Shown here piece after piece: positions 5,677 through 47,195 of a DNA stretch of 64,000 nucleotides. The notes beneath the pieces are model-generated. The model saw nothing but the letters and a program-made list of their open reading frames with translations. It did no database searches and had not been told where the DNA came from. The DNA lies in the NCBI RefSeq assembly GCF_044647545.1, contig NZ_CP172818.1. One strand, 5' to 3'. Position numbers and translations under genes: made by a program. Position 1 is the first letter of the stretch. The number at the start of each line of letters is the position of its first letter. The stretch is from Escherichia coli. GTDB lineage: Bacteria; Pseudomonadota; Gammaproteobacteria; Enterobacterales; Enterobacteriaceae.

Positions 5677-7875
5677 ATGTCGACTCCTGACAATCACGGC
5701 AAGAAAGCCCCTCAATTTGCTGCGTTCAAACCGCTAACCACGGTACAGAACGCCAACGACTGTTGCTGCGACGGCGCATGTTCCAGCACGCCAACGCTCT
5801 CTGAAAACGTCTCCGGCACCCGCTATAGCTGGAAAGTCAGCGGCATGGACTGCGCCGCCTGTGCGCGCAAGGTAGAAAATGCCGTGCGCCAGCTTGCAGG
5901 CGTGAATCAGGTGCAGGTGTTGTTCGCCACCGAAAAACTGGTAGTCGATGCCGACAATGACATCCGTGCCCAGGTTGAATCTGCGGTGCAAAAAGCGGGC
6001 TATTCCCTGCGCGATGAACAGGCCGCCGACGAACAACAAGCATCACGCCTGAAAGAGAATCTGCCGCTGATTACGCTAATCGTGATGATGGCAATCAGCT
6101 GGGGTCTGGAGCAGTTCAATCATCCGTTCGGGCAACTGGCGTTTATCGCGACCACGCTGGTTGGGCTGTACCCGATTGCTCGTCAGGCATTACGGCTGAT
6201 CAAATCCGGCAGCTACTTCGCCATTGAAACCTTAATGAGCATAGCCGCTATTGGGGCGCTGTTTATTGGCGCAACGGCTGAAGCTGCGATGGTGTTGCTG
6301 CTGTTTTTGATTGGTGAACGACTGGAAGGCTGGGCCGCCAGCCGCGCGCGTCAGGGCGTTAGCGCGTTAATGGCGCTGAAGCCAGAAACCGCCACGCGTC
6401 TGAGTAACGGTGAGCGTGAAGAGGTGGCGATTAACAGCCTGCGGCCTGGCGATGTGATTGAAGTCGCCGCAGGTGGGCGTTTGCCTGCCGACGGTAAACT
6501 GCTCTCACCGTTTGCCAGTTTTGATGAAAGCGCCCTGACCGGAGAATCCATTCCTGTGGAGCGCGCGACGGGCGATAAAGTTCCTGCAGGAGCCACCAGC
6601 GTAGATCGTCTGGTAACGCTGGAAGTGCTGTCAGAACCGGGTGCCAGCGCCATTGACCGGATTCTGAAACTGATCGAAGAAGCCGAAGAGCGCCGCGCGC
6701 CCATTGAGCGGTTTATCGACCGCTTCAGCCGTATTTATACGCCAGCGATTATGGCCGTCGCCCTGCTGGTAACGCTGGTGCCGCCGCTGCTGTTTGCCGC
6801 CAGCTGGCAAGAGTGGATTTATAAAGGGCTGACGCTGCTGCTGATTGGTTGCCCGTGTGCTTTAGTTATCTCCACGCCCGCGGCGATTACCTCCGGGCTG
6901 GCGGCAGCAGCGCGTCGTGGGGCGTTGATTAAAGGCGGCGCGGCGCTGGAGCAGCTGGGTCGTGTTACCCAGGTGGCGTTTGATAAAACCGGTACGCTGA
7001 CCGTCGGTAAACCGCGCGTTACCGCGATTCATCCGGCAACGGGTATTAGTGAATCTGAACTGCTGACACTGGCGGCGGCGGTCGAGCAAGGCGCGACGCA
7101 TCCACTGGCACAGGCCATTGTGCGCGAAGCACAGATTGCTGAACTCGCCATTCCCACCGCCCAATCACAGCGGGCGCTGGTCGGGTCTGGCATTGAAGCG
7201 CAGGTTAACGGTGAGCGCGTGTTGATATGCGCTGCCGGGAAACATCCCGCTGATGCATTTGCTGGTTTAATTAACGAACTGGAAAGCGCCGGGCAAACGG
7301 TAGTGCTGGTAGTACGTAACGATGACGTGCTGGGTATCATTGCATTGCAGGATACTCTACGCGCCGATGCTGCAACTGCTATCAGTGAACTGAACGCGCT
7401 GGGCGTCAAAGGGGTGATCCTCACCGGCGATAATCCACGCGCAGCGGCGGCAATTGCCGGGGAGTTGGGGCTGGAGTTTAAAGCGGGCCTGTTGCCGGAA
7501 GATAAAGTCAAAGCGGTGACCGAGCTGAATCAACATGCGCCGCTGGCGATGGTCGGTGATGGTATTAACGACGCGCCAGCGATGAAAGCTGCCGCCATCG
7601 GGATTGCAATGGGTAGCGGCACAGACGTGGCGCTGGAAACCGCCGATGCAGCATTAACCCATAACCACCTGCGCGGTCTGGTGCAAATGATTGAACTGGC
7701 ACGCGCCACTCACGCCAATATCCGCCAGAACATCACTATTGCGCTGGGGCTGAAAGGCGTTTTCCTCGTCACGACGCTGTTAGGGATGACCGGACTGTGG
7801 CTGGCGGTGCTGGCAGATACGGGTGCGACGGTGCTGGTGACGGCGAATGCGTTAAGGCTGTTGCGCAGGAAATAA
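5677..7875 (+). CDS. zntA: Zn(II)/Cd(II)/Pb(II)-translocating P-type ATPase ZntA
   Basis: 732 aa; N-terminal metal-binding GMDCAAC, CPC transmembrane motif, DKTGTLT phosphorylation site, GDGINDAP hinge. Confidence 0.97.
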   Translation: MSTPDNHGKKAPQFAAFKPLTTVQNANDCCCDGACSSTPTLSENVSGTRYSWKVSGMDCAACARKVENAVRQLAGVNQVQVLFATEKLVVDADNDIRAQVESAVQKAGYSLRDEQAADEQQASRLKENLPLITLIVMMAISWGLEQFNHPFGQLAFIATTLVGLYPIARQALRLIKSGSYFAIETLMSIAAIGALFIGATAEAAMVLLLFLIGERLEGWAASRARQGVSALMALKPETATRLSNGEREEVAINSLRPGDVIEVAAGGRLPADGKLLSPFASFDESALTGESIPVERATGDKVPAGATSVDRLVTLEVLSEPGASAIDRILKLIEEAEERRAPIERFIDRFSRIYTPAIMAVALLVTLVPPLLFAASWQEWIYKGLTLLLIGCPCALVISTPAAITSGLAAAARRGALIKGGAALEQLGRVTQVAFDKTGTLTVGKPRVTAIHPATGISESELLTLAAAVEQGATHPLAQAIVREAQIAELAIPTAQSQRALVGSGIEAQVNGERVLICAAGKHPADAFAGLINELESAGQTVVLVVRNDDVLGIIALQDTLRADAATAISELNALGVKGVILTGDNPRAAAAIAGELGLEFKAGLLPEDKVKAVTELNQHAPLAMVGDGINDAPAMKAAAIGIAMGSGTDVALETADAALTHNHLRGLVQMIELARATHANIRQNITIALGLKGVFLVTTLLGMTGLWLAVLADTGATVLVTANALRLLRRK

Positions 7876-7976
7876 GGCAAACCGATCGCAACATTGAGCG
7901 CGATCGGTCCCCTCGCTCCTCTGGGGAGAGGGTTAGGGTGAGGGGAAAAGGCGGCATCGAAGCCAATCTTCCCCCA

Positions 7977-8222
7977 TCAACCGCCTTTACGAATCAAATA
8001 ACGATAAGGCAGTCCATCCGTCTCTTTCGCAACCAGTTCGTGTTCCATAAAGGTACAAAACCCAGGAATATCGCGGGTCGTCGCCGGATCGTCAGCAATA
8101 ATCAGCAACGTTTCACCTGGCTGCATATTGCGCACTGTTTTGCGCACCATCATTACTGGTTCCGGGCAGCGCAGGCCAAGTGCGTCGAGTGTGTGGTCAG
8201 GGCTGGAAAAGAGATCGGTCAT
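7977..8222 (-). CDS. tusA: Sulfur carrier protein TusA
   Basis: 81 aa with conserved CPxP motif (LRCPEPV). Confidence 0.95.
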
Positions 8223-8442
8223 TTTCTTCTCATCACATAAAAAAACGGCGCTAGTTTACGCCCTGTGAGTCCGTAAGCAAACCAGGTTAACGATTGCGTG
8301 AAAATTAACCATTGCATTGTTAACGTAAAGCAGTATCATGCGGCGGCTCGAAAAAAGGGTCAGCACGTTATTATGTTAAGGTAACAGACGTGTCGTACGT
8401 ATTGGGTTCCCTCACCCCAATGGTTAATCAAAAAGGTACAAT

Positions 8443-46877: not shown

Positions 46878-46964
46878 GCGTTAGATGATGGCATTCTCAC
46901 TCCAGCCAGAGCCACCAACTCAGGGCTGGAAAGTAAAAAAACCGACGCAAAGTCGGTTTTTTTA
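46878..46964 (+). ncRNA. agrA: AgrA-like small RNA (first tandem copy), antisense to the dinQ leader
   Basis: Repeat unit ending in CCGACgcaaaGTCGG + T7 terminator; near-identical to plus-strand 46685..46715. Confidence 0.6.
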
Positions 46965-47109: not shown

Positions 47110-47195
47110 CCGTTAGATAAGAGCTCTCTCACTCCAGCCAGAGCCACCAACTCAGGGCTGGAAAGTAAAAAACCGACGCAAAGTCGGTTTTTTTA
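47110..47195 (+). ncRNA. agrB: AgrB-like small RNA (second tandem copy)
   Basis: Second copy of the same unit with identical terminator hairpin (47173..47194). Confidence 0.6.

Follow-up and report, generated by a model that had tools for sequence, protein, structure and literature searches.

The 64,000-nt stretch of DNA analysed in this study (hereafter the window) comes from Escherichia coli, and an 801-nt query taken round the site of interest was 100% identical to several complete genomes in which zntA and tusA are annotated. The zntA gene, encoding a P-type Zn/Cd/Pb ATPase, occupies 5677-7875 on the plus strand (stop codon at 7873-7875) and the tusA gene, encoding a sulfurtransferase, occupies 7977-8222 on the minus strand; both were placed from the list of open reading frames and from the RefSeq annotation under the 100%-identical E. 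coli matches. The two genes are convergent, as the first-pass annotation had described them, and are separated by a gap of 101 nt (7876-7976). Whichever strand was taken, this gap folded more stably than shuffled sequence (z=-3.3 for plus and z=-4.5 for minus).

Two GC-rich inverted repeats had been recorded in the gap, and both were found where they had been placed. The first (hairpin 1) consists of ACCGATCGC (7881-7889) and GCGATCGGT (7900-7908), which are 9 nt long, 100% complementary and separated by a 10-nt spacer. The second consists of TCCCCTC (7908-7914) and GAGGGGA (7940-7946), and is contained within the 37-nt GC-rich segment CCCCTCGCTCCTCTGGGGAGAGGGTTAGGGTGAGGGG (7909-7945). The window holds perfect 9-nt hairpins with spacers of 3-12 nt at about 17 places (38 overlapping seeds) versus 2.5 seeds in mononucleotide shuffles, which puts hairpin 1 in a real, non-random class. 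Elsewhere in the window, two copies of one perfect hairpin, with the arm AAAAAACCGAC..., are located at 46935-46963 and 47167-47193, 232 nt apart.

A 9-nt inverted repeat can arise randomly, with 2.5 seeds expected per 64 kb, and both palindromes might be taken for chance features of a GC-rich spacer, unrelated by origin to other sequences. This reading is refuted by the highly significant multi-copy family described below, both by copy count and by profile match, and hairpin 1 was invariant in all seven sampled genomes that carry the allele of the window; we give it practically no chance of being correct. As part of the overall explanation developed here, we consider it highly probable that the zntA-tusA gap combines an old dispersed repeat with a small number of unique bases.

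Identity and anatomy of the GC-rich unit

The GC-rich unit in the zntA-tusA gap is BoxC, and this very copy has already been published under four names (BoxC, PIT, TMECO and HPG1) since the 1990s. For its G-rich 23-nt part, the chance expectation in the window was 0.00 occurrences, and one was seen. Holder et al. 2015 (PMC4666352) defined the TMECO motif as CCCTCNCCC-N3-6-GGGNGAGGG-N3-GGGNGAGGG, noting BoxC as its earlier name and its rediscovery as PIT (potential intrastrand triplex). Table 1 of that paper lists 23 copies in MG1655, among which no. 16 is CCCTCGCCCCTCTGGGGAGAGGGTTAGGGTGAGGGG at 3,608,684-3,608,719, type A 'mm', and in its Supplementary Table S2 this copy is 33 nt away from zntA and 31 nt away from tusA, spacings that are the same in the window. 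Kaplan et al. 2016 (PMC5100583) independently listed the zntA-tusA site as no. 40 of the HPG1 group of putative G-quadruplexes, and Petrillo et al. 2008 (PMC2267715) tabulated BoxC as a 56-bp family of 32 copies. The finding is therefore real but ordinary, since both the element and this copy were known already.

The BoxC core lies at 7910-7945 on the plus strand and corresponds to TMECO no. 16 (type A mm), to a PIT element and to HPG1 G4 motif no. 40; it aligns to MG1655 3,608,684-3,608,719 and agrees with K-12 at 35 of 36 positions. Three blocks are recognized within it, namely the C-rich block 1 CCCTCGCTC (7910-7918; consensus CCCTCNCCC), block 2 GGGAGAGGG (7924-7932) and block 3 GGGTGAGGG (7936-7944), all read on the plus strand, with the TTA loop that defines type A standing before block 3. 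Block 1 can pair with either block 2 or block 3, and the earlier description of the palindromes as nested is thus correct for the second unit. Blocks 2 and 3 with their flanking Gs provide four G-tracts on the plus strand, in the canonical G-quadruplex arrangement GGGG-AGA-GGG-TTA-GGG-TGA-GGGG. The only difference from K-12 inside the unit is a C>T change at 7917 on the plus strand, which by alignment also distinguishes the window from E. marmotae and leaves T:G in place of a C:G pair; an exact match to the 66-mer with T at 7917 was present in 2701 records. By this one mismatch the window copy fails the strict TMECO pattern, its blocks 2 and 3 and both loops fitting, whereas the K-12 orthologue fits fully. 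Its membership of BoxC, judged by homology, is unaffected by this miss. The remaining three differences from K-12 fall in the variable tail that separates BoxC from the stop codon of tusA (7961-7976), in which the sampled strains vary at 7968-7974.

The first-pass annotation had also remarked that the second unit lacks a flanking T run and resembles a dispersed repeat more than a simple terminator. Both remarks are borne out: the unit is followed by AAAAGGCGG on the plus strand and by ACCGATCGC on the minus strand, no U-rich tract follows the core on either strand, and the core was left unflagged by the consensus scan for terminators. A genome search for further copies had been suggested, a single-copy sequence with terminator behaviour only being named as the contrary outcome. 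Using a 66-nt query, matches were obtained in 5425 of the 5426 complete E. coli genomes, with a median of 18 and a maximum of 34 places per genome. Among the 92,185 places in these genomes, 92,116 were chromosomal and 69 were on plasmids, and all of the 12 other K-12 BoxC sites, which were fetched by their published coordinates, were intergenic. The unit is therefore dispersed and multi-copy, the opposite of that contrary outcome.

The extent of the unit was evaluated from the type-A copies among these twelve K-12 sites. In their flank alignment, conservation continues beyond the core, over about 20 nt on its left side (cAAaAacG.Gc.CGgACGGT) and over about 13 nt on its right side (GAAcAg.ccggcac). 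An nhmmer profile built from 10 other K-12 type-A copies matched the window at 7887-7955 (67.7 bits, E=1.9e-20), so that the full unit, comprising the 5' extension, the three-block core and the 3' extension with the G-rich strand on plus, is placed at 7887-7955. The 37 nt previously given for the repeat unit is too short; BoxC here is about 69 nt long, with approximately 56 nt of that well conserved, in agreement with the 56 bp published for the family. When the weight matrix of the left 20 nt was used alone, 7887-7906 ranked 4 of 127,962 positions, and the matrix of the right 16 nt ranked the corresponding segment 243 of 127,970 positions; the 3' extension of the window copy is weakly conserved. 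The profile match and the rank of the left extension together indicate that the loop and the right arm of hairpin 1 are part of BoxC, the right arm (7900-7908) lying within the 5' extension. Only the left arm (7881-7889) is unique, non-repeat DNA, and it is homologous to the linker between REP and BoxC in other alleles. The two palindromes, which had been described as adjacent, are indeed so, but they are overlapping parts of one repeat and not independent features.

RNAalifold analysis of 11 aligned BoxC copies predicted the core hairpin alone, with block 1 paired to block 3 or block 2, and detected no covariation in this alignment. An outer stem formed by the 5' and 3' extensions was also considered, and was dropped because RNAalifold predicted none.

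A scan of the genome collection for the G-rich pattern gave, among the matches listed, loci from Polaromonas, Afipia, Contendobacter, Archangium and a Bacteroidaceae MAG. The upstream CCCTCNCCC block was present at 90 of the 141 core matches in such distant-taxa loci (again among the matches listed), and this wide recurrence agrees with the published occurrence of the three-block motif in more than 260 genomes. In the betaproteobacterial Polaromonas MAG (L035, L038, L039, L043, L047, L054, L055, L061 and L064), many three-block motifs are arranged as inverted pairs 35-100 nt apart, which mirror the inverted pairs of type A and type B described for E. coli. In an enterobacterium whose TusA is 94% identical, a type-B BoxC (CCCTCACCCGGCCCCTCTCCCACGGGGAGAGGG) adjoins the end of tusA and is oriented as in the window (L137:1540-1590), with MarC and not zntA as its downstream neighbour, and BoxC is thus found at the 3' end of tusA in two contexts. 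A single-block motif, GGGGTGAGGG, which is not BoxC, was observed in the divergent tusA-yhhQ gap of the window (8409-8421, minus strand). It stands upstream of both genes, about 140 nt from the tusA start and, in the window, 22-34 nt from the yhhQ ATG. Klebsiella, Salmonella and two further enterobacterial loci have conserved it, the matches lying near 1146 in L137-L139 and near 1056 in L140.

The anatomy and distribution of BoxC bear on the proposal that it is a functional hairpin, triplex or G-quadruplex switch, acting either in DNA or in the 3' UTR RNA of zntA, which regulates expression, blocks polymerases or protects the 3' end. The four G-tracts lie on the zntA sense strand, triplex formation was recorded in vitro by CD and NMR for oligonucleotides of type A and type B (PMC4666352), switching between G-quadruplex and hairpin was recorded in vitro by CD for the type B oligonucleotide HPG2 (PMC5100583), and the three-block motif recurs in distant phyla with block 1 in the proportion given above. 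Against these observations, DMS footprinting in vivo gave no sign of a triplex and addition of the complementary strand led to duplex (PMC4666352, PMC5100583), the motif is linked neither to gene function nor to the distance from the open reading frames (PMC4666352), covariation is lacking among the 11 aligned copies, the core at this locus is truncated or deleted in about 6% of E. coli, and the window copy carries the weakening C>T change. We therefore regard a switch of this kind as unlikely. The near-identity of the copies together with the three-block motif in distant phyla could nevertheless reflect selection for a function, the status of neutral passenger being a default assumption.

Structural alleles of the gap and their ancestry

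Four structural forms of the zntA-tusA gap were seen, which were first revealed by a ranked sample of matches. Allele A, with the 101-nt gap of the window and K-12, was present in 4567 of the 5426 genomes (84%). Allele B (e.g. Nissle 1917 and ATCC 11775), present in 523 genomes (10%), carries two REP units between zntA and BoxC and an imperfect left arm, ACCGGTTTCAAGCAG.... Allele C carries a 102-aa open reading frame, one REP and a BoxC without 6 nt of block 3, and allele D carries the same open reading frame, two REPs and, of BoxC, no more than the 5' extension and block 1 in mutated form; C and D were counted together in 318 genomes (6%). Among seven allele-A genomes, the core varied at 7917 and in the length of one G-run, in addition to the tail positions noted above. 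The junction at 7866-7912 is single-copy per genome and was present in 4567 genomes. REP/BIME units (GCCGGATGCGGCG...CCTTATCCGGCCTAC) were observed in the gap of alleles B-D (L122:208-365; L124:556-706) and also in E. marmotae and E. albertii, and no GCCGGATGCGGCG-type palindromic unit exists in 7876-7976, the window allele being free of any REP.

The 102-aa open reading frame is hydrophobic, occupies the zntA-tusA gap of about 6% of E. coli genomes and is absent from the window and K-12. It was located at L123:233-541 (allele C), L124:233-541 (allele D), L141:901-1209 (E. marmotae) and L143:901-1209 (Escherichia sp. E4742). Searches of Pfam and NCBIfam returned no family for it, and its homologues were confined to Escherichia. 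In loci reached through protein look-ups with TusA and the 102-aa product, the tusA-zntA gap holds this frame in E. marmotae, in E. albertii (truncated) and in Escherichia sp. E4742, and its presence in these three other species suggests that the ORF-bearing form is ancestral; allele A appears to be a deletion derivative, the polarity of the deletion being drawn from these three outgroup genomes. BoxC itself stands at the same position in E. marmotae (where block 3 has undergone two G>A changes) and as a remnant in E. albertii, and is lacking at the locus in Escherichia sp. E4742, in Klebsiella, in whose gap only a REP-like unit was seen, and in Salmonella, in which a chemoreceptor gene lies beside tusA. 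The BoxC insertion is best read from these comparisons as old within Escherichia, preceding the split of E. coli and E. marmotae, and as decaying in several lineages. Allele D was considered as an empty pre-insertion site and was rejected, because it retains the BoxC 5' extension and the mutated block 1 and is thus a deletion derivative.

That BoxC promotes local genome instability, with the four alleles as its products, is a tentative reading that we hold to be possible and, on balance, doubtful. Holder et al. (PMC4666352) recorded greater intergenic change round the motifs than at control sites, and the variants at this locus are compatible with their claim of unusual variability, as association only. 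The variants include the loss of 6 nt in block 3 (L123), the loss of blocks 2 and 3 (L124), a change of G-run length (strain 7/2), the point change in block 1, the variable tail and the large deletion of the open reading frame and REPs. However, the variability recorded by Holder et al. may simply stem from relaxed constraint in gaps that bear repeats, REP elements, which are themselves linked to rearrangement, share the gap in alleles B-D, and the end of the large deletion is not in the BoxC core but about 10 nt outside the element. Whatever their cause, the alleles form a natural series (core intact, truncated or deleted, with or without REP) for tests of 3'-end formation and of deletion.

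Hairpin 1 and the 3' end of tusA

A terminator-like site was identified by the consensus scan on the minus strand at 7869-7910, with the stem GGACCGATCGCGC...GCGATCGGTTT and the tail GCCTTATTT, and is proposed as the intrinsic terminator of tusA. It has the GC-rich stem and U tract sought by the scan, with 12 pairs (6 of them G-C) and a loop of 8 nt, and the RNA of hairpin 1 on this strand has a minimum free energy of -20.1 kcal/mol. On the minus strand hairpin 1 is followed by TTTGCCTTATTT, which includes the interrupted U tract UUUGCCUUAUUU, and on the plus strand it is followed by CCCCTCGC; the scan found no terminator-like site on the plus strand between zntA and tusA, and none in the gap of alleles B and D. 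Hairpin 1 on the minus strand probably terminates tusA, as its sequence features suggest, and the tusA 3' UTR would then carry the C-rich strand of BoxC. This terminator may be weak, given its interrupted U tract and the 10-nt loop between its perfect arms.

Mapped 3' ends for tusA or zntA were sought in Term-seq supplementary tables and none was found there. Adams et al. 2021 list a significant minus-strand entry antisense to zntA at MG1655 3,607,955(-), roughly window 7181, apparently in the bicyclomycin-sensitive (Rho-dependent) set. This signal could be accounted for by some read-through from tusA or by antisense transcription.

Two other candidates for the nature or origin of hairpin 1 were set aside. 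An Rfam search run with permissive thresholds matched the Hrs13 sRNA (RF02631) at 19.7 bits versus a gathering threshold of 52 bits, the match being driven by the terminal hairpin and the U tail. An origin of the left arm by de novo template switching at a quasi-palindrome is weakened by Escherichia sp. E4742, which already has the short CCGATCACAACATTGAG form.

The whole gap might alternatively be a dedicated bidirectional terminator, in which hairpin 1 and BoxC stop both transcripts and BoxC is kept for that purpose. Both strands fold far better than shuffles, 6 of the 16 K-12 copies of HPG1 lie between convergent genes, and hairpin 1 resembles a terminator on the minus strand. However, the BoxC core lacks a T run on both strands, the plus strand has no terminator-like site in the gap, alleles B and D persist in about 15% of genomes without such a site, and selfish repeats would also be expected to gather between convergent genes. 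Moreover, PIT/BoxC elements were negative for both promoter and terminator activity in earlier work to which Holder et al. (PMC4666352) refer. We consider a dedicated bidirectional terminator quite improbable.

The explanation that we prefer, and hold with considerable confidence as a whole, combines BoxC as a passenger, a deletion of the open reading frame and REPs, and hairpin 1 as the terminator of tusA. BoxC is a non-coding, chromosomal and intergenic family of roughly 20-30 copies per E. coli genome, and its presence at this locus is older than the split of E. coli and E. marmotae. When single-stranded, its core, in which a C-rich block precedes two G-rich ones, can fold into a hairpin, a G-quadruplex or a purine-motif intrastrand triplex, and the duplex apparently stays B-form in vivo. 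Most likely BoxC persists as a tolerated, selfish or neutral passenger, for which the gap between convergent genes would be a harmless place, and it may render nearby DNA prone to small deletions. The ancestral 102-aa frame and the REP elements would have been deleted in the short allele, the direction of this change being the one suggested by the outgroups, and the deletion would have joined unique ACCGATCGC to the BoxC 5' extension GCGATCGGT, creating the perfect 9-bp hairpin. On the minus strand this hairpin with UUUGCCUUAUUU would act as the intrinsic terminator of tusA, and it may also serve as a 3' stabilizing stem for zntA mRNA.

A bolder form of this explanation, which we offer as a conjecture with less than even prospects, is that the tusA terminator of most E. 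coli is a BoxC chimera, in which deletion of the ancestral, Escherichia-specific 102-aa membrane-protein gene and REPs produced the hairpin with its U tract in allele A only (84%); BoxC would also cause the polymorphism of the gap by structure-induced deletions.

Relation to known elements

To what is already known of this locus, the present analysis adds the extent of about 69 nt, the assignment of half of hairpin 1 to BoxC, the restriction of the hairpin with its tail to the commonest allele, and the apparently ancestral ORF-bearing form. With Rho-independent terminators, hairpin 1 on the minus strand shares a GC-rich stem and a U-rich tail placed directly downstream of the tusA 3' UTR; it differs in that its U tract is interrupted and its role is putative, and the BoxC core has no U tract. 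REP/BIME elements are likewise short, palindromic, multi-copy and intergenic, often lie between convergent genes and occupy the same gap in alleles B-D, but are unrelated in sequence to the BoxC of the window. REP elements can serve as 3' stabilizers and are mobilized by RAYT transposases, whereas no such enzyme is known for BoxC.

The G-rich 21-mer of HPG1 (PMC5100583), GGGAGAGGGTTAGGGTGAGGG, is identical in the window copy. In that paper the motif is put forward as a candidate regulator, and at the zntA-tusA site regulation is likewise a candidate role only. As to the TMECO/PIT elements (Hoyne & Maher 2000, 2002; PMC4666352), the window copy is the orthologue of no. 16 as tabulated there, of type A 'mm' with TTA as the second loop. 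It differs by having CCCTCGCTC in place of CCCTCNCCC, which makes it a 'mutated TMECO' in the terms of PMC4666352, and the extra T:G raises the imperfect triplets to 2/9 from 1/9. With BoxC as given in the Bachellier/Hofnung surveys and, with 56 bp and 32 copies, in the table of PMC2267715, the unit shares its family, its intergenic and chromosomal location and a copy number of the order of 20-30; apart from one substitution in block 1 and a weak 3' extension, the window copy has no essential difference from it.
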